Positions 472 to 12,522 are shown, counted from the stretch's first letter. The stretch is 64,000 nt of DNA from an uncultured Thermococci archaeon (GCA_964549615.1 CAZJVP010000076.1:33802-97801); one strand, 5' to 3'. Translations and numbers: made by a program. Notes: generated by a model not told the origin, from the letters alone.

Positions 472-2415
472 GTGTCGATTGCCCGTGTCTTCGCCATCGC
501 CCTATTTGCTCTGACGCTAAGCGCCGCTGCATTGGTCGCTTGGATGCGTTGGAGGTGCAGAAGGCAGGTGAGAAGGGCGGTTCTCATCATCCTGCCCATC
601 CTGGCGCTGGGAGAGTTTTTTGCTCTGTACCCGATCCCGCTCCTCCCCCACAACCCCGCCGTGGCGGCCGAGGGACGGACCTATGGGCCTCGCCCTGGTT
701 TTCCGGTCGTCCTGGTCATGGGCGAGACGGCGGATGCTAAGACCTTCCGCCAAGCCGACTGGAGCGGCGCATGGGCCAACACGCTTGTACAGGAGATTTC
801 TGGTTGCTCCGTGATCTCCGTTTCCCGCGTGGACGACGATCTTCTCCAGGATACTAGCCTCTTGGTCTTGTCAAGAAGTGCGTCTGGTCAACTTGCTGGG
901 ACTCAAGTGGCGAGCCTGGAGAAGTGGGTCATGCGCGGCGGGTTGGCGATAGTGGAGCAGCAATCGAACACGCTGTCGAACCTGACGGGGGTGAGTGTGG
1001 CAGGGGTTGGAGAGGCGTGGTCGCCTGCGAGGGTGACCAAGGTGGCAGGAAGCGCCCAAGAGTGGGCGGACCTAACGCTGATGCCTCTCGTTACCTCCTG
1101 CATGACGTTGTCCAAGAGAGCCGATGATACGACCGTGGCGATGGAGATGGACGATCAGCCCGTCGTCCTGGTCAGACACATCGGTGAGGGAGCCGTTTGT
1201 ACATACCTCTTCGACGTGGGCCAACAATTGACGGCCCTGCAGCAGGGCGTCCCCTCCAAGGGATTCCGGGTGGTGGACAAGAGGGGCGCCGGCGGCATCG
1301 TCGATGCGCCGGATCTCATCTGCAGCTCCGGCCCGTTGGATTGCAGCATTCCTTTCGCCGATGTCTTGGAGAGATGGATGGTTGGATTGTTGGAGGACAT
1401 CCGGGCGATTCCGCGGATGTGGTACTATCCGTATGATTATGACGGAGCTGTGGCCATCACGCACGACGAGGACTGGTTCGGCGATGCATCGAGTTTTGTA
1501 ACCGAACACGAGAAGGCCAGTAACTACTCATCGACCTTCTTCATGATCGCGAGGGGTCCTCTGACCTCCCAAGGCCTTGACATCATGAGCGGCCTGGGAG
1601 CCGACATACAGATCCACTGGAACAGGGAGATGCTCAGATGGCGGGACAAAGCGGTGCGCAGATGGTTCGTGGTGTTCACTAGGGGCGATGGCAGCTTGAG
1701 GAAGCAGATCCGCGTACTGGAGGAGAAGCTTGGAGGCAAGGGCGAGGTGTCGCTGTGCAGAATTCACAGACTAAGCTGGGGAGGTCGGTACACTCGGCCA
1801 TACAGGATCATGGAAGCTGCGGGTGTGAAGCTCGACTCGACGTTGGGACCAGCTGGAAAGACCGGAAGGGGATACCTTTTCGGAACCGGCCTGCCGTTCC
1901 ATCCCATAGACACCAACGGCAAATTGTTCTCCTTGTTGGAGGTTCCCTTCCAGATCCAAGCGAGGTATTCCGGGGTAGATCGCTCCTACATCGGTGACTT
2001 GCTTCGAAACAGCAGCGTGCGCTACCACGAGATCATCACCGCTCTGTACCACCCATCCGACTTGGTCGAGGGCTCGCCGGTGACGGAGGACTGGTACGTT
2101 TTCCACGAGCTTGCACGGCAAGAGAACCACTGGATGATTACCCTTTCGGATCTGGTTGGATGGTGGACCGCAAGGCAAGCAGTGGAAATAGGCAACGTTA
2201 AGTGGAACGGCACCTCCCTCAGTTACGATTGCGCGGCCACGCTGGATCGGATGGCGATCATTGTGCCCCTCTCACACAACGGTCTTGCGATCTCGTCCAT
2301 CTTCGTGGATTCAGGGCCGGCCCAGGCAACGAGAACGATTTCGCTGCAGGGAAGGCAGTACGTGTTGGTTCGGATCGACCAGGGCAGGCATTTCATCTCC
2401 GTCGTCTACCGATGA
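472..2415 (+). CDS. Membrane-anchored polysaccharide deacetylase-like protein
   Basis: Two N-terminal hydrophobic helices, GATase-like middle region, YYPYDYDGAVAITHDED and later RIH / DSTLG / GTGLPF / LYHP motifs. Start set at GTG 472, ~25 nt after AT-rich GATATTAATT (ORF track opens at 178). Confidence 0.6.
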   Translation: MSIARVFAIALFALTLSAAALVAWMRWRCRRQVRRAVLIILPILALGEFFALYPIPLLPHNPAVAAEGRTYGPRPGFPVVLVMGETADAKTFRQADWSGAWANTLVQEISGCSVISVSRVDDDLLQDTSLLVLSRSASGQLAGTQVASLEKWVMRGGLAIVEQQSNTLSNLTGVSVAGVGEAWSPARVTKVAGSAQEWADLTLMPLVTSCMTLSKRADDTTVAMEMDDQPVVLVRHIGEGAVCTYLFDVGQQLTALQQGVPSKGFRVVDKRGAGGIVDAPDLICSSGPLDCSIPFADVLERWMVGLLEDIRAIPRMWYYPYDYDGAVAITHDEDWFGDASSFVTEHEKASNYSSTFFMIARGPLTSQGLDIMSGLGADIQIHWNREMLRWRDKAVRRWFVVFTRGDGSLRKQIRVLEEKLGGKGEVSLCRIHRLSWGGRYTRPYRIMEAAGVKLDSTLGPAGKTGRGYLFGTGLPFHPIDTNGKLFSLLEVPFQIQARYSGVDRSYIGDLLRNSSVRYHEIITALYHPSDLVEGSPVTEDWYVFHELARQENHWMITLSDLVGWWTARQAVEIGNVKWNGTSLSYDCAATLDRMAIIVPLSHNGLAISSIFVDSGPAQATRTISLQGRQYVLVRIDQGRHFISVVYR

Positions 2416-2643
2416 AGGTTAGCGCGGATCTCGATCTCCGGAACGTTTTCGGAATCCCGCCGACTGTGGCTCACGAGGCCCACGAATGGCCATGGCCGTC
2501 AACTGGCCCGTTCTTCGCGCTTCCGAGGATTGCCTTGCGCAGCTACGGCAAAGGCCATACCAAGAGACCCCCCGTTTGCACTGTGGCGCTCGCTCGGGCA
2601 AGCGGTGGTGGCCTTAGCCATAGCTGTAGCTGTAGCTACAGAT

Positions 2644-2655
2644 AACCTTTAAATC
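2644..2655 (+). promoter_or_regulatory. Putative TATA box of rps26e
   Basis: AACCTTTAAATC about 40 nt upstream of the ATG in a GC-rich background. Confidence 0.5.
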
Positions 2656-2690
2656 CAAACGGGTCCCAGCCGGCCCAATCAGTGACATGA

Positions 2691-2936
2691 ATGACGTCCC
2701 GGAAGTCGCGGCATAAGAAGTGGGGAAAGTACAAGAAGAGCGTGGGGCGCCAGAGAACCGTTTCCTGCGTTTTCTGCGGGCGCTCCGTGCCAAGGGGGAA
2801 GGCCACGCCCGTCGAGAGGGGTATGCGGTTGGGCGACCTAAGGTCTTTGGGCGTGAAGCGCGAGCAGGTAATGCTGCCGAGCTACAAGTACTATGCGTGC
2901 ATAAGCTGCGCCAAGCATCGGAAGCTGATCAAGTAG
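2691..2936 (+). CDS. rps26e: 30S ribosomal protein S26e
   Basis: Basic 81-aa protein with CxxCGRxVPRxKA and YACISCAKHR Zn motifs. Confidence 0.9.
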   Translation: MTSRKSRHKKWGKYKKSVGRQRTVSCVFCGRSVPRGKATPVERGMRLGDLRSLGVKREQVMLPSYKYYACISCAKHRKLIK

Positions 2937-3921
2937 CCTCTGCGGGGACTGGCTGCGCAGGTGCGGTGACTCCTGCGCACTTGGTGCACATGTTCTTCTC
3001 CTTTATGAAATGCTCCGGGCAGACGTAGAACCCGCAGGAGTTGCAGAACGTGCGGTGCCTGTCGCAGATGGGCTCCCTGCAAACCCTGCATCGGATCGTG
3101 ATGGCCACCGAGTCGCAGAACTTGCACCTCAGGGCTCCCTTCTTCCTCTGCTCCAAGACCCTGGCTCTCTCTTGTGGGTTCACGAGATTCAGCGATGTCG
3201 AGTGCACGACCTTTACTAGCCCGCTCGGGGCTGTGGCCGTGACCTTGAACTTGACTCCCAGCGCTTCAACCTCTTCGCCGACGCGCACGGACTGACCGAC
3301 GATGTCCTCCTTCGCGAACTTCCGGAGGAGCTCGCAGGCCTTGTAGCTCAGGAAGGTTTGGGGCTCAAGGACCACGACCTTCGCATCTTCCAGGTCGGAC
3401 GTAGTCTTTTTGGACGCGCTCGTCATCCTGACCCTGATCCTCTTCGCCTTCCCCTTGGCAGCGCATTCGATGCACGTGTAACTGGCCTCGTCGTAGCAGT
3501 TCTCGCAGATGAACTTGCCGCAGACCAAGCAGTGAGCATTCCCAAGTCCAACGCCGCATATGGGGCATGTCAGGCACTCCTCACAGTAGCCTGCAAGCGG
3601 GGCGTTGGGATGGGCGCACTTGTACCCAAATCTCCTTCCGCATTCGGGGCAGGTTTCCCGGCCGAACTCGACGCCGCATATCTCGCACTTTCCGCTGGCC
3701 AATCTCAGGCCGAGGCCTTTGCCCATGAAGTGGAGCAGCGCGAACAGTCCGCCCGAGACGGCACTCATGATGACGACCGCGAAGACCGTGTCGTTGAAGA
3801 CGCCCAGGAGCACGTAGAGCCTCCAGGCGATGCTGAGGCTCAGCACGAAGCCCACCAGGGCCAGGATGTTGCCCATGTAGCGGAAGACATCTGCGTAACC
3901 TGTTCTTCTCATGGTTGCCAA
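2929..3921 (-). CDS. 2-TM membrane protein with multiple B-box/AN1-like Zn fingers and a CDC48-Nc (beta-clam)-like domain
   Basis: Two N-terminal TM helices and many CxxC pairs flanking AKVVVLEP...IVGQSVRVGEEV...FKVTATAPSGLVKVVHSTSLNL. Confidence 0.7.
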   Translation of the reverse strand: MATMRRTGYADVFRYMGNILALVGFVLSLSIAWRLYVLLGVFNDTVFAVVIMSAVSGGLFALLHFMGKGLGLRLASGKCEICGVEFGRETCPECGRRFGYKCAHPNAPLAGYCEECLTCPICGVGLGNAHCLVCGKFICENCYDEASYTCIECAAKGKAKRIRVRMTSASKKTTSDLEDAKVVVLEPQTFLSYKACELLRKFAKEDIVGQSVRVGEEVEALGVKFKVTATAPSGLVKVVHSTSLNLVNPQERARVLEQRKKGALRCKFCDSVAITIRCRVCREPICDRHRTFCNSCGFYVCPEHFIKEKNMCTKCAGVTAPAQPVPAEAT

Positions 3922-3932
3922 GCGGGAACCTC

Positions 3933-4889
3933 CTAAGCTTCTATGGATACCTCCGTTGGCCTCATGACGCGAACTCTTCCGGGAGGATCGGTCTCCAGAA
4001 CCTTGAAAGGCATCTCGACGGCCTCTATGGCGTCCCCCGCTGCGAGTCTCTGGCCGATGAGCTCGTTCCTGACAAACCTGTTAAGGATCTTGATCATGGA
4101 TGCGCTTAGGTAGTGATCGCTCTTAAGGCGAACGGTCTTGGCGGGCTTGATGTCTGGCATCTGTATCTCCTCGTTCACGACCCCGCCGTCCCTCAGGTAT
4201 ATGATCAGGTCGGCCTCGGCCGTTATCTTCGGGTCGTGCGTGCTGACCAGAAGGGTCGAGTGCTGCTCCTCCTGGAGCTCCTTCATGAGAGCCACGATCT
4301 CGAGGCCGGTCTTGGCGTCCAGGTTCGCGGTGGGTTCGTCGGCCAGTATGAGCGGCGGATTGAAGACCAGCGCCCGCGCGATGCCAACCCTCTGCTGCTC
4401 GCCGCCCGAAAGCTCTATTGGCCTGTGGTGCATTCGGTCTTTGAGTCCCACCCGCGTCAGGACCTCAACCGCCCGCTTCCGCCTGTCTTCCTTGTCCACC
4501 CCCGCCATCTCCAGGGGCAGTTCAGTGTTCTCAAGCGCGGTGAGAAGCGGGACGAGATTCCAGGTTTGGTGGATGAACCCTATCGTCTCCTGCCTGAGGA
4601 TGTTGAGGAAGTCCCTGTCCCCCTTGGTGATGTTCAGCCCGCCGATGTAGACCTCCCCGCTCGTCGGCGAGTCGAGCCCGCTTATCATGTTCAGGAAGGT
4701 GGTTTTCCCTGATCCCGACGGCCCGATCATGACGGCGAAGGCCCCTCTCTCTATGCGGATGTTGACTCCCCTTAGGGCATGTACCTTAACCTCTCCTCCC
4801 GCGAGCTTGAAGGTCTTGGTGAGGTCCCGCGTGTCGACCATGAAGGGCCCGCGTATCTCTATGAGGTGCTTGCCGAGGTCAGTACTCAA
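3933..4889 (-). CDS. LolD/MacB-family ABC ATPase with C-terminal CDC48-Nc-like extension
   Basis: GPSGSGKT, LSGGEQQRVGIARAL, LADEPTANLD, STHD, followed by ~70 extra aa (AKTVRLK...LIGQRL..GD...FKVLETDPPGRVRVMRPTEVSI). Confidence 0.9.
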   Translation of the reverse strand: MSTDLGKHLIEIRGPFMVDTRDLTKTFKLAGGEVKVHALRGVNIRIERGAFAVMIGPSGSGKTTFLNMISGLDSPTSGEVYIGGLNITKGDRDFLNILRQETIGFIHQTWNLVPLLTALENTELPLEMAGVDKEDRRKRAVEVLTRVGLKDRMHHRPIELSGGEQQRVGIARALVFNPPLILADEPTANLDAKTGLEIVALMKELQEEQHSTLLVSTHDPKITAEADLIIYLRDGGVVNEEIQMPDIKPAKTVRLKSDHYLSASMIKILNRFVRNELIGQRLAAGDAIEAVEMPFKVLETDPPGRVRVMRPTEVSIEA

Positions 4890-6831
4890 GTCTAAACGCC
4901 TCCGCAGGAGCCATTCCCGACGCCCTTCGGGAGGGATACCAGGATGAGAGGTAGCTTATGCCGACGGCCAGGAATAGCCCGAGCCCCATCATGGACAGGA
5001 TCATGAGCCAGTTCAGACCCCGGAAGTTCCAGGTGAACAGGAACGGCAGCATCGCTGCGAAGAGTCCTATCAGAGCGCCTATCACCCCGCCTATGAAACC
5101 TATGATGCTCGCCTCGACCCTGAACATCCTCCGTATGTGCTTTGGCTCCCCGCCGATGGCGATCATCGCTCCGATCTCCCCCGTTCTCTCGAGTACAGCC
5201 GTTATCATCGTGTTGAAGGTTCCGAGGGCACCGATCGCGATCGCGACGAGCGCCAGCGCGGTCTGGTAGGCCTCGACCACCACCTCACCTCCTGCTATCT
5301 GGCTCTTGATGGCCTGAGAGGTTATCATGAGTTGGACGAACAGGCCTATGCCTATGGCAATGCCTATGGTCGCAAGCAACGACCGGGTGAACCTTCGCAG
5401 CAGGTTCCTCACGGCCAGGGAGGTGTATATCCTCTTGCGAAGGAACTTCATCTTCACCAGCTTCTTGTAGATGGGGTTCATGTATTTCGTGACTATGCTT
5501 TCGGACGCTGCCTCCAGCCCGTACCTCATGGCTGTCAGCGGGTCGTAGAGGGCGGCTCTGAAAGCAGGGACTATGGAGGCTATGAGGGCCAACCCGACGG
5601 CCAGCATCAGGGGAGCTGCTACCAGGGAAACGGTGAATCGAAGGGAGATGAGGGTCGGGTACAGGCGGCTGGCCATGAACGCGATGGAAACGCCCAGCGC
5701 CCCGCCGATCAAACCGAGGATGATAGCCTGGATCATGAAGATGCTCATTATCCTGAATATGGTTGCGCCGAAACTCCCCATGATGCCTATGTCGCGGACT
5801 CTCTCGTAGACTCGCGTGAACATCATGTTCATGATCACGACCGCGACCGCGATGAAGGAGATCACGATCGTGGTGGTGTGCGCGAGGCGGGTGCTCCCCA
5901 TGGTCCCTGCCCCTGTCGGCGTGATGAAGTACGGAGCAACCTCGGCCATCTTGCGTAGCGGCACGATCACGTTGTTAATGATGTCGATGCCGCTCACGCC
6001 CTCTTGGTAGCGCACGTATATGCGCGAGACGGTGTCCGGTTCCATCGCGAACAACCGCTCTGCGTCCTTGCGGTGTATGAGGATGGTGTTCCCTGACCAG
6101 GCTTCCTCTGGCCTACCCAGCCGGTCCAGCGCTGGGTCGTCCAGCGTCTTGAACAGGCCAACCACCCTCAACGTGATGGTGCCATGGGTCGCTCCGCCGG
6201 TGGTCCCGCGCTTGGCAATCATCCCGGGGCGCAAGGTTATGTTGTCCCCAACGCCTATGACCCCTATCCCGTACTTCTGGAACTGTTCATGGTAGTACTC
6301 GGCCATGTCCACGCCTATCAAACACTCGCCCGGCTGGCTTATGTACGAGCCGTCGGTCACGAAGTCTCTGAGCCCCCTGCCGTCATCCGTAACGACCTTC
6401 CTCCACCACGCGTCCTCGGATTCGGGATCGATGCCGAATATGCTCAGCGGCCTCCCACGCATTCTCCTCTCAAGTGCCGTGAGTTTTTGGGCCACGGATG
6501 TCCCATTCACATCAATGTAACCTCGAGGGTCCTCCGCGATGAACTCGGTTCGCGGGTTCACTATATCAACGCCCTTGAGATTTCTGATCTCATCAGCGCT
6601 GGAAATGGGGGTGTTAGGTTGCCGGAAGGAGTACAGGACCTTGGTGACGCTCTGCCGCTCGGCGGCGTACATCTGCAGATTCATGGCCGTCCCCACGGCG
6701 ATCTCGAAGTTCTCTGCGAGCGGAAGGATGCATAGGAATGCCGATATCGCAAGCGTGATGCTGGCGACGGTCACCGAGGTTATCAGGAGTCGACGTCTCA
6801 GGTCCCGGATCGCGATGGAGAAGGAGCCCAT
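4879..6831 (-). CDS. MacB/FtsX-family ABC permease (two FtsX domains)
   Basis: Start reset to ATG 6831 after GAGGTG SD. Extracytoplasmic MacB-like loop and two FtsX motifs (ERVRDIGIMGSFGA; ERTGEIGAMIAIGG). Confidence 0.9.
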   Translation of the reverse strand: MGSFSIAIRDLRRRLLITSVTVASITLAISAFLCILPLAENFEIAVGTAMNLQMYAAERQSVTKVLYSFRQPNTPISSADEIRNLKGVDIVNPRTEFIAEDPRGYIDVNGTSVAQKLTALERRMRGRPLSIFGIDPESEDAWWRKVVTDDGRGLRDFVTDGSYISQPGECLIGVDMAEYYHEQFQKYGIGVIGVGDNITLRPGMIAKRGTTGGATHGTITLRVVGLFKTLDDPALDRLGRPEEAWSGNTILIHRKDAERLFAMEPDTVSRIYVRYQEGVSGIDIINNVIVPLRKMAEVAPYFITPTGAGTMGSTRLAHTTTIVISFIAVAVVIMNMMFTRVYERVRDIGIMGSFGATIFRIMSIFMIQAIILGLIGGALGVSIAFMASRLYPTLISLRFTVSLVAAPLMLAVGLALIASIVPAFRAALYDPLTAMRYGLEAASESIVTKYMNPIYKKLVKMKFLRKRIYTSLAVRNLLRRFTRSLLATIGIAIGIGLFVQLMITSQAIKSQIAGGEVVVEAYQTALALVAIAIGALGTFNTMITAVLERTGEIGAMIAIGGEPKHIRRMFRVEASIIGFIGGVIGALIGLFAAMLPFLFTWNFRGLNWLMILSMMGLGLFLAVGISYLSSWYPSRRASGMAPAEAFRLEY

Positions 6832-7102
6832 GCATGCACCTCGGCGTTGCCGAAAAGGAGACGATCCAAACCCGCTCGAAAAACTCATATAAATGTTTTC
6901 GGCGCGTTGGAAGAGGCAGAATACGCCGTCTTGTGGCCCGATCGTTGACGTGGTGTCTTGGATCCGATATCTGCGTGCAAAGCTTCCTCCAAAGGCGCCG
7001 AAACCGATCCTGGTGAAGGGACTAGGGGTCGTTTTCCGAGGCACCGTCCGCAGGCGAACCCGCGCCTCTACATTTTTCTTGGGTTCCGCCCAAAGGAGGT
7101 CG

Positions 7103-7837
7103 ATGGCCTCCTTTGTCGTGACGGACATCGCATTCATGCCAAATGGGGTCGAGGGCCTACGTCTCTGGTCCAGAAAGCAGACCGCAATTTTGCCTCTAGA
7201 AAGAGGAAGGACGATCTCGTTCAGGGTTTCAGGCCAGCCCACGGCCAGCCGGCCGAAGGACCGATGCGCCCTCTGCGATGGGTCTCTGTGCCTGAAGGCA
7301 AGGATGGATTGCACGGTCCCCCATGTTTTGTACCTTGCCCTTTTCGGCCGGGCAGCCAAGATCGGCGTCACCAGGGAATCGAGATACGAAAAGAGAATTA
7401 GGGAGCAGGGAGCACCGTTTGCATGTGTCGTGGCCAGGTTCGAAGATGGCCTGGAGGCCCGCAGGGCGGAGAGGGCCTACTCGGCTTGGGAGGGCGTTAG
7501 GCTCTCTGTCAGGTTCGAGGACAAAGTTGGCGCGATCGGAAAGGTACCGGACGTGTTGGAGGCAAACCGGATAGTGAGGACTATCCCCCTTCCCGCCGTC
7601 CCGCAGCTGGAGGACATGAGGCACCTCTATCAGAACCCGGATCTTGACTCGATGGAGACTCCACTGATTCTTGACGGGGACGTGGTCAAGGGCAGGGTTG
7701 AGGACACGCGCGGTGAGGCGCTGTACTTCAGGCACCGGGACAACCTCTACGCGTACGATCTGAGGAGGACCCTGGGAAGGAGCCTTGGCCTCGGCGAACA
7801 CAAGGTGGAGGCGCAGATGACGCTGAGCAACTTCTGA
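7103..7837 (+). CDS. DUF2797-family protein
   Basis: ATG 7103 after AGGAGGT; HVLYLA..KIGVTR..R..EQGA motif. Confidence 0.75.
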   Translation: MASFVVTDIAFMPNGVEGLRLWSRKQTAILPLERGRTISFRVSGQPTASRPKDRCALCDGSLCLKARMDCTVPHVLYLALFGRAAKIGVTRESRYEKRIREQGAPFACVVARFEDGLEARRAERAYSAWEGVRLSVRFEDKVGAIGKVPDVLEANRIVRTIPLPAVPQLEDMRHLYQNPDLDSMETPLILDGDVVKGRVEDTRGEALYFRHRDNLYAYDLRRTLGRSLGLGEHKVEAQMTLSNF

Positions 7838-7842
7838 AGGGG

Positions 7843-8607
7843 TTGCCCATGGTTCCTCGCTTCAATATGCATGTGCATACTTGGCGATCATCATGCGCCA
7901 AGCCCGAGATGCTTCTGGAGTCGATCAACAGGAAGGCTCGGTCAGCCGGGCTGCGGTACGTAGGTCTGTCTGATCACATCGACGTTGCTGCGCATAACGA
8001 CCGTCCCACGCGGAATCGCGAGGATCTGTCGATGGGCTCGTGGGATGTCAATTTCCTGGTGGGTTGCGAGGCAACGGCTCTGTCTCCTAGCCGCGTGGCC
8101 GTTTTCGATGACGTGGCCCGTCGGCTGGACTACGTGATGGTCGCGGCAAACCACTACCACCTGGGGGTCGTGGAGAATCCTGCTCGCCGAGAAGCTTCTT
8201 CGTATGCCTCTCACTACCTGAGGATGCTCGAAGGGGTCCTAGGCTGGGGCTTGGCCGACATAGTTGCGCACCCATTTCTTCATTCAAAGATCGCCAGGGT
8301 ACTGAACCCCCTGGATGTCCTTGAGTGCTATGATTGGGATGAACTGGAAAGGATCTTGGTTGAGTCGGCGCAAAGGGGCCTTAGCTTTGAGTTGAGGCCC
8401 GGTTCGTTGAGCGCTGCGCCCGAGTTCTTCCGTGAGCTTGTTCGATTGTGCAGGGAAAGCGGGGTGAAGTTCAGCCTGGGCAGCGACGCCCACAGGCTTT
8501 GCGAAATCGGGTATCCACCCCATTTCGGCGACGAACTGGAATCGATCGGAGTGAGAAACAGCGATCTCATCGAGCCAGAACAGTTCCTGGTTTCTTCGCC
8601 CAGGTGA
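7843..8607 (+). CDS. PHP-domain phosphoesterase
   Basis: HVHT, SDH, AHP and GSDAH metal-binding motifs. Confidence 0.9.
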   Translation: MPMVPRFNMHVHTWRSSCAKPEMLLESINRKARSAGLRYVGLSDHIDVAAHNDRPTRNREDLSMGSWDVNFLVGCEATALSPSRVAVFDDVARRLDYVMVAANHYHLGVVENPARREASSYASHYLRMLEGVLGWGLADIVAHPFLHSKIARVLNPLDVLECYDWDELERILVESAQRGLSFELRPGSLSAAPEFFRELVRLCRESGVKFSLGSDAHRLCEIGYPPHFGDELESIGVRNSDLIEPEQFLVSSPR

Positions 8608-8734: not shown

Positions 8735-9776
8735 TGCGTTATCCGAAATTTATTTCCGCCCCCTGTTTGGGCCGGGTCGGTGGTCAAGCTAACCGACTCA
8801 AGGATTCGATGGATCATACGCCAGAAAGAGAAGGGAGAGATGACCGAGAAGAAGATCGCAGCTGTCTACGGCATCACCACAAGAAGACTACGACAACTAT
8901 GGACCCAGTACAGATCCACCGGACAGATGCCCACCCTATCCCAGCCAGGCAGGCCCACAACACCACGGGATCCCGGGGAAGAAGACCTGGTCCTGGAGGC
9001 GTACAAGAAGCACCACGTCTGCGCGGTTGTACTGGAACACCTCATCCAGAAGGATCACTCCACAAGGATTCCGCACAACCGGATCCACACAATCCTGATC
9101 AAACATGGCTACGCCAAGAAGACCCCCCGCAAACAGAGAAAGCGCAGATGGGTCAGATACGAGAGAAAGCACTCCATGTCGCTCTGGCATCTTGACTGGT
9201 TTGCCCTTGGCAAGATCGCTCCATCCCTAGGGAGGTGGCTTCTGGTCGTGCAGGACGATGCGTCCAGGAGGGTTATGGGGTTTGGCGTCTTTGACCAGCC
9301 CACCGCTGCGGGCAGCGTCAAGGTGCTTGAGGATGCTATAGGGATGCATGGTGACCCGGATTCCGTGATCACGGATAAGGGTACACAGTTCTACGCTGTT
9401 GAGAGTGATGGTAGAAAGAAGGGTTTCAACGAGTTCGAGCTCTTCCTCCAGGTGCACGGCATCAGCCATATCCTGGCTAGGACCAGTCATCCCCAGACCA
9501 ATGGCAAGATCGAGCGCTTCTTCCAGACCTTGGCAAGCCAGATGGATCACTACTCGTCTCTTGACGGTCTTGTTGAGTGGTATAATACTCGGAGGCCCCA
9601 TATGAGTCTGGGCATGGTCACACCTGAGGAGGCTTTCTGGCGCAGGCTGGGAGCTGAGAGGGTTCTCGGGAGGGCCAGCCATCTACTTTACCGGGAACTG
9701 GAACCTGCCGCGAAGTGACCTAGATGACCCACAAAAAGCACGCCCAGAAAAGAGGAAATAATTATGGGATAACACA
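8735..9776 (+). mobile_element. IS481-family insertion sequence, 1,042 bp
   Basis: Imperfect 23-bp TIRs: TGCGTTATCCGAAATTTATTTCC (8735-8757) and reverse complement of 9754-9776, TGTGTTATCCCATAATTATTTCC. Flanked by a perfect 15-bp direct repeat. Confidence 0.93.
8780..9718 (+). CDS. IS481-family DDE transposase
   Basis: N-terminal HTH; WHLDW, ITDKGTQF and NGKIERFFQT (DDE triad). Confidence 0.93.
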   Translation: MVKLTDSRIRWIIRQKEKGEMTEKKIAAVYGITTRRLRQLWTQYRSTGQMPTLSQPGRPTTPRDPGEEDLVLEAYKKHHVCAVVLEHLIQKDHSTRIPHNRIHTILIKHGYAKKTPRKQRKRRWVRYERKHSMSLWHLDWFALGKIAPSLGRWLLVVQDDASRRVMGFGVFDQPTAAGSVKVLEDAIGMHGDPDSVITDKGTQFYAVESDGRKKGFNEFELFLQVHGISHILARTSHPQTNGKIERFFQTLASQMDHYSSLDGLVEWYNTRRPHMSLGMVTPEEAFWRRLGAERVLGRASHLLYRELEPAAK

Positions 9777-9898: not shown

Positions 9899-11569
9899 GT
9901 GGCTCCCGTGACCAAGTATGTCATCGTCACAGGGGGGGTCATGAGTGGATTGGGAAAGGGGATCACAGCGGCCTCCATAGGCAAGATGCTCCAGGCGCGC
10001 GGGTACACCGTCACCGCGATGAAAGCCGACGGTTACTTCAACTACGACGCCGGGACGCTCAGGCCTACGGAACACGGCGAGGTATGGGTCACACATGACG
10101 GCGGCGAGATAGACGAGGATTTCGGGCACTACGAGAGGTTCCTGGACATATCGTTGCCCAAGAACCACAACGTGACCTCCGGGCAAATCTACGGGCAGGT
10201 CATCCAGAACGAGAGGCAGGGCAAGTACCTGGGCACGACCGTCCAGTTCATCCCACACGTGACCGACGAGGTTAAGAGAAGGATCCGTGAGGTCGCGCTC
10301 AGCGAACAGGTCGACATCCTGATATTCGAGATCGGGGGGGTGGTGGGCGACTACGAGAATCTCCACTTCACGGAGGCGGTCCGCCAGATGCGGATGGAGG
10401 AAGGCCCGAGGTCCCTCGTTCACGTTCATGTCAGCTACGTCCCGATCCCCGAACACTTGGGAGAACCAAAGACGAAGCCGACCCAGCATTCCGTGTACAA
10501 GCTCCGGGAGCAAGGCATCCCGCCCGACTTCATAGTTTGCAGATCGAGCAGGATGATGGACGAGGTCAGGAGGAGCAAGATCTCGCTCTTCTGCGATGTC
10601 TACCCGCAGGACATAGTATCCAATCCGGACATGGAGTGCATATACGAGATACCCCTCATTCTTGAGGAACAGGGGCTCGGGGAAAGGCTCACGGAAAGGC
10701 TCGGCCTGAGATACAAGAAGCCGCGGCTGGAGGAGTGGGCCGCGATGGTTCAGCGGATGAAGAACCCCAAGACCTGGGTCCGGATCGCCTTGGTGGGGAA
10801 GTACGTGGACACGGGGTCTTACAGGCTTCCCGACTCCTACGTGTCGATAAACGAGGCGATAAAGCACGCCGCGGCCTGGCACGAGGCTGGCGCCAAGATA
10901 TCGTGGATCGACTCAAAGCAGTTTGAGACGGATCGGGATTCGCTCGGATGCCTTGACGCTCAAGACGGCATCATAATTCCCGGCGGCTTCGGGACGACGG
11001 GCGTTGAGGGCAAGATCAAGGCTGTGGAATATGCGAGGGTGAAGGGCATCCCCTTCCTCGGCATCTGCTTCGGATTCCAGTGCGCGGTCGTGGAGTACGC
11101 GCGTAACAAGATGGGCCTTGAGGGGGCAAACAGCACAGAGATCGATCCGGACACACCACATCCCGTCATCGACATCCTTCCGGAGCAGGAGAAGATCATC
11201 AGGGAAAGCAGGTACGGGGCAACGATGAGGCTGGGGGCATACCCTGCAAAGCTCACGCCAAAGACCAAGATCGCCCAGCTGTACGAGTCCCTGGGCAGGG
11301 TGGAAAAGGAGGGGCTGGTGTTCGAGCGGCATCGCCACAGGTATGAGGTGAGTCCAAGGTACTCCGAGATGATAGACGCCGCCGGCATGAGGTTCGTGGG
11401 AAAGTCCCCCGACGGGCTGCTCATGGAGTTCTTTGAGGTGGACTCTCACCCCTACTTCGTCGGAACCCAAGCGCACCCGGAGTTCCTCTCAAGGCCCCTG
11501 TCGCCCGCGCCGCTTTTCGTGGGCCTGATCGAGGCAGCTCTTAAGAGGGCCGGAGCGAGGACATCATGA
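9899..11569 (+). CDS. pyrG: CTP synthase
   Basis: TGGVMSGLGKGITAASIG, KTKPTQHSV, LGICFG, ERHRHRYE, QAHPEF. Confidence 0.98.
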   Translation: MAPVTKYVIVTGGVMSGLGKGITAASIGKMLQARGYTVTAMKADGYFNYDAGTLRPTEHGEVWVTHDGGEIDEDFGHYERFLDISLPKNHNVTSGQIYGQVIQNERQGKYLGTTVQFIPHVTDEVKRRIREVALSEQVDILIFEIGGVVGDYENLHFTEAVRQMRMEEGPRSLVHVHVSYVPIPEHLGEPKTKPTQHSVYKLREQGIPPDFIVCRSSRMMDEVRRSKISLFCDVYPQDIVSNPDMECIYEIPLILEEQGLGERLTERLGLRYKKPRLEEWAAMVQRMKNPKTWVRIALVGKYVDTGSYRLPDSYVSINEAIKHAAAWHEAGAKISWIDSKQFETDRDSLGCLDAQDGIIIPGGFGTTGVEGKIKAVEYARVKGIPFLGICFGFQCAVVEYARNKMGLEGANSTEIDPDTPHPVIDILPEQEKIIRESRYGATMRLGAYPAKLTPKTKIAQLYESLGRVEKEGLVFERHRHRYEVSPRYSEMIDAAGMRFVGKSPDGLLMEFFEVDSHPYFVGTQAHPEFLSRPLSPAPLFVGLIEAALKRAGARTS

Positions 11570-12522
11570 GCTCGTCGCCACGGGGCTTCCTTTTCCCGCA
11601 AGTGGACCCGATAGTCTCGGCCCAACAGCTCTCCATCTTTCTGGAGGTATCTGGCGAACCGAAGCCAGGGAATGTGACGAGGCGCAAGGCCTTTCCCGAG
11701 ATCTCTTACGACGATTTCGCCTTCGCTTCAGCCTCGATCCGAGACCCGCTGCGGCGTTCCTACAGGCGTGCAAGGAGCGCGGCCTGTGAGGGGAAGAGGC
11801 TCTGCGGGCTCTGGGGACGGGCGCTTCTTGAGTCCAGCAAGGAGTCCATGTTCGGGCTTTCGAACACGATATTCGGGACCCTGCTCGTCGAGATACCATT
11901 GGGAATTGGGGCAAGCGTCGCGAGGCCATGGGACAGCGTGGTGCGGAAGGCCGAAGAGGTCGTCCGAGCCTCGGACTGGACAGATTCGCTGGATTTCGTC
12001 AGATCGATCCGAGGTTGCGGCGTGGGCAACCTGTCCCACCCGGGCTTCGTGCGATCGGACGAGGCGCTGGATCTTGAGGACCCGGCAATTGAGGCCAAGA
12101 TAAGAAAAAGGAAGGTGAGCCTTGAACGCCTGCTCGCGCCCTCGGTCGGATACGACCTTCTAGCATCGGAGCTCGTTGGAGGCTTCCCCATCATCAGCAA
12201 GTACGCCCCTAAGTTCGTGGCATGGCTTCGCGAGTTCCAGGACCCGATCAAGGCGTCGGCTGCAACATACTGTTCGCTGCTAGCGGAATACCCCGACTCG
12301 CTGGTGGGCCGCAAGGCCGGAGCCGAAGTGGCAAAGCAGGTAATGGTACGCGCAGCAAGGGTGATGCGGTTCCCGCTCTTCTCGGCCAGATGGCTTAAGG
12401 GGATGGAGAGGCTGGATGCGGACCTGAGAAAGAGGGACCTGAACCCCGGAACGCTTGCCGACCTGACGGCCGCAAGCATCTTCCTCGCTCTCATTGGAGC
12501 CGTGCCTACTTCCGCTGTATGA
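11566..12522 (+). CDS. CitG-family (triphosphoribosyl-dephospho-CoA synthase-like) protein
   Basis: LEVSGEPKPGNVTR, NTIFG, PDSLVGRKAG, NPGTLADL. Confidence 0.85.
   Translation: MSSSPRGFLFPQVDPIVSAQQLSIFLEVSGEPKPGNVTRRKAFPEISYDDFAFASASIRDPLRRSYRRARSAACEGKRLCGLWGRALLESSKESMFGLSNTIFGTLLVEIPLGIGASVARPWDSVVRKAEEVVRASDWTDSLDFVRSIRGCGVGNLSHPGFVRSDEALDLEDPAIEAKIRKRKVSLERLLAPSVGYDLLASELVGGFPIISKYAPKFVAWLREFQDPIKASAATYCSLLAEYPDSLVGRKAGAEVAKQVMVRAARVMRFPLFSARWLKGMERLDADLRKRDLNPGTLADLTAASIFLALIGAVPTSAV

Follow-up and report, generated by a model that had tools for sequence, protein, structure and literature searches.

A type VII-like archaeal ABC operon whose ATPase and membrane zinc-finger partner share a Cdc48-type beta-clam domain, predicted to act as a docking pair

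Type VII ATP-binding cassette (ABC) systems, such as MacB, LolCDE, FtsEX and BceAB, have been studied as mechanotransmission machines, and the partners known for them are either kinases or proteins at work outside the membrane. In LolC plus LolE, as in BceB, two FtsX modules are provided for two ATPases. Here we describe an operon in a 64,000-nucleotide stretch of DNA (the window) from an uncultured Thermococci archaeon (GCA_964549615.1 CAZJVP010000076.1:33802-97801), which would encode a permease, an ABC ATPase and a membrane zinc-finger protein, hereafter called Z. The operon resembles the four systems named above in having an FtsX permease with an extracytoplasmic domain between transmembrane (TM) helices 1 and 2, and a LolD/MacB/FtsE-like ATPase with its catalytic motifs. 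Unlike them, it has a fused, asymmetric permease with one large outside domain, and its ATPase falls under every equivalog cut-off. On these sequence matches, the system belongs to the type VII ABC class without being an equivalog of LolD, MacB or FtsE. To our knowledge, the C-terminal beta-clam domain of the ATPase and the Z subunit, which carries a second beta-clam, have no counterpart in type VII systems. The listings and abstract beginnings returned by a full-text literature search, supplements not being among them, describe no ABC ATPase with a CDC48_2 or beta-clam domain and no Z partner, in agreement with an earlier note on this DNA, made from the sequence alone, which knew of no described ABC ATPase with this fusion.

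The same fold, with detectable homology, is that of the Nc (CDC48_2) domain of Cdc48/p97/VAT, NSF/Sec18, PEX1/Pex6 and UFD1. Unlike those proteins, the ones described here have no Nn barrel and no AAA+ module, and the packing partner predicted for their beta-clam is a second beta-clam, not Nn. In AMA ATPases the N-domain is a solitary beta-clam joined to an AAA+ ring. PH1500-N (PDB 2jv2, 2m3x, 4uzr) is, like the domains described here, a beta-clam without a double-psi barrel and is their best PDB sequence match, but PH1500 joins it to a beta-propeller-forming domain, whereas here it stands on the nucleotide-binding domain (NBD) of an ABC ATPase and inside a membrane zinc-finger protein. The nearest functional analogy is offered by the C-terminal domains of MalK, MetN and ModC, each an extra domain after the NBD which takes part in dimer contacts underneath the ATPase and to which regulators can dock. 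These regulatory domains are TOBE/OB- or ACT-like and belong to importers, not to type VII systems; in contrast to them, the partner here is membrane-anchored and carries a copy of the same domain.

The tail of the ATPase aligns with residues 176-246 of Z without gaps over 71 aa (32% identity, BLASTP E 1e-11), a similarity far beyond chance, and by this alignment the two segments are homologous. The CDC48_2 affinity was followed with a profile, A1, made of 15 ABC and Z beta-clam copies and zero CDC48 sequences. Against 1.84 billion representatives, A1 matched 32 proteins at E<=0.001, of which 25 were fetched and P0002 was already known; those left out (P0019, P0020, P0030, P0031, P0034 and P0039) are long multi-stretch matches. 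Four of the fetched matches are N-terminal CDC48 fragments aligned exactly on Nc (E 2.6e-7 to 3.0e-4), in which both CDC48_N and CDC48_2 exceed the Pfam cut-off, and three solitary A1-matched proteins also pass the Pfam CDC48_2 cut-off. Furthermore, A1 matches the Nc part of CDC48 open reading frames (ORFs) in the organism's own genome (G000, E 0.0048) and in genome G004 (E 2e-6). Its best PDB sequence match is PH1500-N at E 0.027 (1.3e-4 with alignment A2), followed by a few unrelated chains at E 0.2-0.6 and then by p97-N at E 0.77-1. The only NCBIfam match of the segments is to CDC48 (TIGR01243, E 0.0067). Two points weigh against the assignment. The direct Pfam scores for CDC48_2 (PF02933) are 17.2 bits for the ATPase and 16.3 bits for Z, both under the cut-off of 22.4, and the strong hhalign result for A1 against a CDC48 N-domain alignment, A7 (97.7%, E 1.5e-12, 80 columns, on the Nc part), carries a selection bias since the rows of A7 were found by A1 itself.

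The predicted structures point to the same family. Among the Foldseek matches listed for an AlphaFold2 model of the ATPase segment (pLDDT 92.3, pTM 0.78), with a best E of 2.3e-4, TMq 0.63-0.74 and probability 1.00, nearly all rows were p97/CDC48/VAT N-domains and one was a PEX1 N-domain. With VIA, which is independent of Foldseek, the top 18 rows were all of the Nc type at Z-scores of 11.1-6.5, the next row scoring 3.6, and the Nc-type rows included MSMEG_0858 (Z-score 11.1, rmsd 2.6 over 75), Sec18, PEX1, NSF, UFD1, CDC48A, PH1500-N (7.8, rmsd 1.7 over 65), VAT, Pex6 and DEPDC5/SEA. The Z model, made from an alignment with zero CDC48 rows (A6), has a pLDDT of 78.4, and its residues 168-248 give the same Nc-type matches, with the MSMEG_0858 N-domain at a VIA Z-score of 10.9 (rmsd 2.0 over 71). 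A TOBE/OB or other known ABC accessory fold was looked for among these matches, and no such chain is present in the Foldseek rows listed or in 50 VIA rows. By profile and predicted fold, then, both segments are beta-clams of the Nc/CDC48_2 type. Much of what the earlier note had read from the sequence is borne out by these searches: the segment shared by the ATPase C-terminus and Z is recovered by BLASTP, the motif given for it matches the consensus of 15 copies from the organism's own and related genomes (AKxVxLx...IxGxxVxxGD...FxVxxTxPxGxVxVxxxT), its identification with CDC48 Nc and the PH1500-N beta-clam is supported by hhalign, the A1 search, Foldseek and VIA, and the TOBE/OB or accessory fold that it had named as the contrary outcome does not appear among the structural matches.

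The beta-clam directly follows the NBD in the ATPase and a zinc cluster in Z, and the double-psi barrel CDC48_N (PF02359) gave no Pfam match on either protein at E<=0.1. Since the barrel is absent, the closest known counterpart is the beta-clam of PH1500, which likewise stands alone, and the added domain is, as judged from profiles and models, a member of the CDC48_2/beta-clam superfamily but not a Cdc48-type N-domain, the barrel half of which is missing. Completion of the beta-clams in trans by a separate barrel was also considered, but the organism's own genome offers no candidate, its only two PF02359 matches being full-length CDC48 ORFs (754 and 812 aa).

The phylum is represented in GTDB by five species genomes, all of which were examined. 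The beta-clam domain is found in 5/5 of these genomes, each with two paralogous operons (types 1 and 2), and the order permease, ATPase with beta-clam, Z with beta-clam is kept in all ten operons, these three being the sole genes common to the ten loci. The neighbourhood survey thus finds the trio conserved together, where the earlier note had named its dispersal as the outcome that would speak against it. A search with Z matched 9/61 genomes at E<=0.001; outside the phylum there were matches in 4/56 other archaeal genomes (E 1.8e-4 to 9.3e-4), which cover zinc-finger stretches only. In protein databases the system is represented by a few small unnamed metagenomic clusters, and the family is rare and confined to uncultured archaea, some of the 32 A1 matches being CDC48 itself.

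Natural fusions, a complex prediction and covariation connect the ATPase with Z. In three diverged natural ATPase-Z fusions of 711, 708 and 772 aa, 49-60% identical over their non-NBD part, a single chain runs from the NBD and its beta-clam through a TM hairpin and a Cys cluster to a second beta-clam, a second Cys cluster and 2-3 TM helices. A complex prediction for the ATPase with Z residues 70-327 scored 0.65, the best of 3 controls scoring 0.00; this mark is reached by 58/80 solved complexes and 2/110 mismatched pairs, counts that are only a rough calibration here since the run used custom alignments. At least 67% of contacts agree between runs and the partner pLDDT is at least 76. The interface predicted by this controlled model joins ATPase residues 243-256 and 275-277 to Z residues 186-199 and 218-220, positions that are equivalent at a 57-residue offset, so that the same helix face and strand of both beta-clams are used with pseudo-two-fold symmetry. 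A second predicted patch brings residues 69-82 of the ATPase core against the first zinc finger (Z 79-83). At the predicted contact of ATPase-256 with Z-195, genome family f1 has F/L in type 1 and D/K in type 2, and family f2 has D/K in type 1. This covariation is suggestive of ATPase-Z pairing, though the independent events are few. We therefore propose that the beta-clams are a docking pair which makes Z a cytoplasmic accessory subunit of the transporter, a model that as a whole we give an even chance of being correct.

The surface could also have served a homodimer. The C-terminal regulatory domains of MalK, MetN and ModC pair under the NBD dimer, and the ATPase beta-clams might likewise pair with each other while Z dimerises by its own beta-clam, in which case any attachment of Z to the transporter would be by the TM hairpin or the zinc fingers of Z. 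The predicted interface lies at identical positions in both domains, as expected of a surface inherited from a homodimer; the complex test is, by the tool's own note, also passed by close cousins of the true partner; and the E252/K256 of the type 2 f2 ATPase would suit a self-pair. However, the groups with the D/K contact have Lys/Arg at both Z-195 and Z-199, so that like charges would meet in a Z homodimer, which is unfavourable for self-pairing in 2/4 groups, while the cognate ATPase offers Asp 256. In addition, each fusion holds one copy of each domain per chain. We consider homodimerisation rather unlikely for these reasons.

The ATPase that would receive Z matches ABC_tran in Pfam at 110.9 bits (E 9.4e-32). 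Counted from ATG 4841, residues ~1-224 form an NBD of the LolD/MacB/FtsE type, and Walker A, the Q-loop, the LSGGEQQR signature, Walker B-E169 and H202 are invariant in 19 ATPase homologues. Its best NCBIfam matches are LolD (210.6 bits, equivalog cut-off 307.75), MacB (211.1, cut-off 966), DevA and FtsE (189.1, cut-off 264.85), all under their cut-offs. The permease matches FtsX (PF02687) in two stretches at 91.9 bits against a Pfam cut-off of 25.5 (E 3.9e-26), and in NCBIfam it matches MacB (1e-20) and the ADOP duplicated permease (5.7e-17), while the Pfam match to MacB_PCD is weak (E 6.4e-5, 23.8 bits, under the cut-off of 27). By hydropathy, the second FtsX module has merely a 17-aa loop where the first has a domain of ~280 aa. 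Two FtsX stretches with one big outside domain and such a short loop in the other indicate a fused, asymmetric double FtsX permease.

Z has 327 aa with 26 Cys. Since positive charges flank its N-terminal hairpin, the remainder of the protein is probably cytoplasmic. In the first zinc cluster 12 Cys are invariant and 2 nearly so among 15 homologues that span both paralogue types. A helix separates the beta-clam from the second cluster, which is present only in type-1 Z; type-2 Z lacks it and has a Gly-rich (GGFGGFGG) N-terminus. A Pfam scan of Z gave no zinc-finger model over its cut-off and no B-box or AN1 at E<=0.1, DZR reaching 18.3 bits against a cut-off of 27.3, and the Z paralogues gave weak Pfam matches to Prok-RING_2 (E 0.008-0.024) and an ANCHR-like B-box (0.032). 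The best PDB sequence match of the zinc region is a LIM domain (E 1.9e-4, from a Cys-rich profile), the rows of a VIA search with the whole Z model were taken up by the beta-clam and generic helical hairpins, and an ESM Atlas search with Z returned no usable match. The type of zinc finger is therefore not assignable from the Pfam and PDB profile matches, and they do not establish the B-box/AN1-like label given to it in the earlier note.

The topology of Z recalls a signalling partner, since BceS-type intramembrane-sensing proteins have a two-TM hairpin with a short outside turn. Z, with a four-residue outside turn and all of its domains predicted to be cytoplasmic, might be to this transporter what BceS is to BceAB, a membrane-tethered effector which follows the ATP cycle and whose zinc fingers might bind nucleic acid or a regulator; the permease is moreover of the FtsX type, like BceB. 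Pfam and NCBIfam scans, however, detected no kinase, receiver or DNA-binding family in Z, and no regulator gene is kept beside the operon, so that a signalling output appears very unlikely.

Another view, closer to that of the earlier note, is that the beta-clams bind clients or cofactors, by analogy with Cdc48, VAT and AMA proteins, in an extraction, export or quality-control machine for which Z would be the adaptor. LolCDE extracts lipoproteins. According to the titles of the structural entries, the Nc-type domains of p97, NSF, PEX1 and UFD1 belong to adaptor- or substrate-binding N-domains, and the zinc module is weakly similar to protein-binding fingers of the LIM/PHD/RING type. Known N-domain binding sites mostly need the Nn-Nc cleft, however, and here Nn is absent, with no CDC48_N match on the ATPase or Z and the genome's two matches confined to the full-length CDC48 ORFs mentioned above. 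In the predicted complex the domain pair engages the exposed hydrophobic helix face, and the conserved neighbourhood has no substrate candidate. It is thus quite improbable that client binding is the role of these domains. The polypeptide binding that the earlier note cites for such domains fares less well here than its proposal that they couple the ATPase to the zinc-finger partner: in the models they look more like a dimerisation pair, while the coupling has in silico support from the complex score (0.65 against 0.00), the fusions and the covariation.

In the docking model, the machine would be a type VII system of the MacB/LolCDE/FtsEX class with Z as an extra subunit. The single-chain pseudo-dimeric FtsX permease would take two copies of the LolD-like ATPase, and Z would sit in the membrane by its helical hairpin with the Cys-rich zinc module and the beta-clam facing the cytoplasm. 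The beta-clams of the ATPase and Z would pair via the same helix face and neighbouring strand to form a pseudo-two-fold heterodimer, which would bolt Z to the ATPase, the first zinc finger also making contact with residues 69-82 of the ATPase core. Since the beta-clam is attached directly to the C-terminal end of the NBD, it would shift relative to the membrane-anchored Z whenever the NBD dimer opens or closes, and Z could in this way restrain or report the ATPase cycle. With less confidence than we place in docking itself, we infer that Z is a regulatory or coupling subunit which restrains or reads out the opening and closing of the ATPase dimer. Zinc or redox state may feed in through the invariant Cys clusters, or the clusters may offer a surface for binding, and mechanical work would presumably be done by the extracytoplasmic domain, as in other type VII systems.

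Several points count against the docking model. All evidence is in silico and the organism is uncultured; the analysis gave no indication of a substrate, a signal or a regulatory effect; and the complex score is the model's own confidence. Since the two domains are paralogous, the predicted heterodimer may mirror an ancestral homodimer mode. The fourth group (type 2 of f2), with E252/K256 in the ATPase and L195/G199 in Z, has no complementary pair, which leaves two or three events as the basis of the covariation. Finally, at L048, the sole fusion locus that was read, no FtsX permease is found within 4 kb upstream or 6 kb downstream of the fused gene, so that the ATPase-Z module may not always need a permease.

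This last point raises the question of whether the ATPase and Z are functional by themselves, with the FtsX permease a lineage-specific addition. The module would then be half-transporter-like, using the TM helices of Z, or a conflict or defence module on mobile elements. The fused forms do have 4-5 TM helices of their own, and L048 has a tyrosine integrase and an AAA_25 ATPase nearby as well as no FtsX gene in reach. Such autonomy nevertheless rests on a single fusion locus, while the permease is present and translationally coupled in 10/10 operons of 5 genomes, and PADLOC returned generic ABC-ATPase and LolE_TM matches but none for Z or for the fourth gene of the type-2 operon; as a general account it is extremely unlikely. 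More specifically, the pair of beta-clam-bearing ATPase and Z could be an autonomous ATP-driven membrane module in which a Cdc48-type, adaptor-binding domain and a RING/LIM-like zinc-finger scaffold in the membrane seize cytoplasmic or membrane proteins. We regard this as highly improbable, but if true, it would be an archaeal counterpart, powered by an ABC ATPase, of the way in which Cdc48, adaptor and membrane E3 are arranged in endoplasmic-reticulum-associated degradation, or a new conflict system.

If the docking model is correct, type VII motors could be controlled or read in a manner new to the class, by a cytoplasmic zinc-finger subunit which two homologous domains fasten to the ATPase. 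The findings also add the ABC ATPase and the membrane zinc-finger protein to the contexts of solitary beta-clams, beside VWA and Usp domains, and suggest a capacity of the beta-clam for self-pairing. The family being rare and found only in uncultured archaea, the immediate reach of these findings is modest, but the predicted interface is concrete and easily testable with recombinant domains. The features of the operon are collected in Table 1.

Table 1. Coordinates of the genes, domains and putative promoter element of the operon; positions are those of the window unless given as residues
Feature	Position	Strand	Details or basis
Permease	4879-6831	(-)	650 aa from ATG 6831; alternative ATG 6888
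Permease, 8 predicted TM helices	residues 20-38, 320-338, 361-379, 403-421, 481-499, 517-535, 570-588, 608-626		hydropathy
Permease extracytoplasmic domain, ~280 aa, residues 39-319	5875-6717	(-)	between TM1 and TM2, first FtsX module
ABC ATPase	3933-4889	(-)	318 aa from TTG 4889, or 302 aa from ATG 4841
ATPase C-terminal beta-clam (CDC48_2-like), 78 residues, 225-302	3936-4169	(-)	BLASTP, profiles, AlphaFold2 fold
Z (membrane zinc-finger protein)	2929-3921	(-)	327 aa from ATG 3912
Z TM helical hairpin, N-terminal	3718-3903	(-)	helices 4-36 and 41-65, 4-residue turn; model and hydropathy
Z zinc cluster 1, residues 76-150, 15 Cys	3463-3687	(-)	homologue alignment
Z beta-clam, residues ~172-248	3169-3399	(-)	BLASTP, model, structural matches
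Z zinc cluster 2, residues 263-312, 10 Cys and 2 His	2977-3126	(-)	homologue comparison
TTTATAT, possible archaeal TATA box	6887-6893	(-)	~56 nt upstream of ATG 6831

The three genes form a tight operon at 2929-6893 of the window, transcribed in the order permease, ATPase, Z; their identification, coordinates and close packing in the earlier note hold on re-reading of the ORFs and the sequence. From its TTG start, the ATPase gene overlaps the permease stop by 11 nt, and Z starts (at 3921 or ATG 3912) 11-20 nt past the ATPase stop. The TTTATAT element could, from its sequence, be the promoter of the operon. Since it overlaps the alternative ATG at 6888, the start at 6831 would be favoured for the permease, and the orthologous permease ORF in genome G002 begins at the 650-aa position.

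The type-2 operon of the same genome lies on G000:C104 (locus L033:2358-7932, also L011), and after the type-2 operon the four family-f1 genomes share a conserved gene for a membrane protein of ~425 aa, which matches nothing in Pfam or PADLOC. L042:3435-4274 (G003:C55) encodes a third type-2 Z paralogue, an orphan of 279 aa with neither ATPase nor permease beside it, and a small Cys-rich ORF (4347-4880) is divergent from it. At L048, the fused gene P0018 (4036-6183) lies near a tyrosine integrase (2230-3150) and an AAA_25 ATPase (11140-12150), and a 161-aa ORF consisting of CDC48_N only (10488-10973) is found ~4 kb from the fused gene; this 12-kb locus may be a mobile element.

Among the other proteins found with A1, P0035 and P0041 are metagenomic, from clusters with members named Thermoplasmatota VWA proteins, and have an N-terminal beta-clam followed by a VWA domain (CDC48_2 E 1.4e-4 and 1.2e-3). 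P0029 and P0037 begin with a universal stress protein (Usp) domain and end in a beta-clam-like segment (A1 E 7.8e-6 and 1.2e-4), for which CDC48_2 is sub-threshold. At L043:2625-4817 (G004:C11), where the sequence is rich in AT, a CDC48 homologue is present as two consecutive ORFs of 348 and 351 aa. The gene may have been split or interrupted; another possibility is that the contig does not belong to the bin.

Of the genes that flank the operon in the window, an 81-aa ribosomal protein S26e-like gene at 2691-2936 (+) (Pfam E 8.6e-5, under the cut-off) is convergent with Z, the last 8 nt of which it overlaps. On the other side, a DUF2797 gene (6893-7837, +) and a gene for a PHP-domain protein (7843-8607, +) are divergent from the operon and, being syntenic only in family f1, are probably unrelated to the system. 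Beyond them, a 312-aa ORF (8780-9718, +), which resembles an IS-type transposase or integrase when its sequence is read by eye, has the PHP gene on one side and a CTP-synthase-like gene (9899-11569) on the other.

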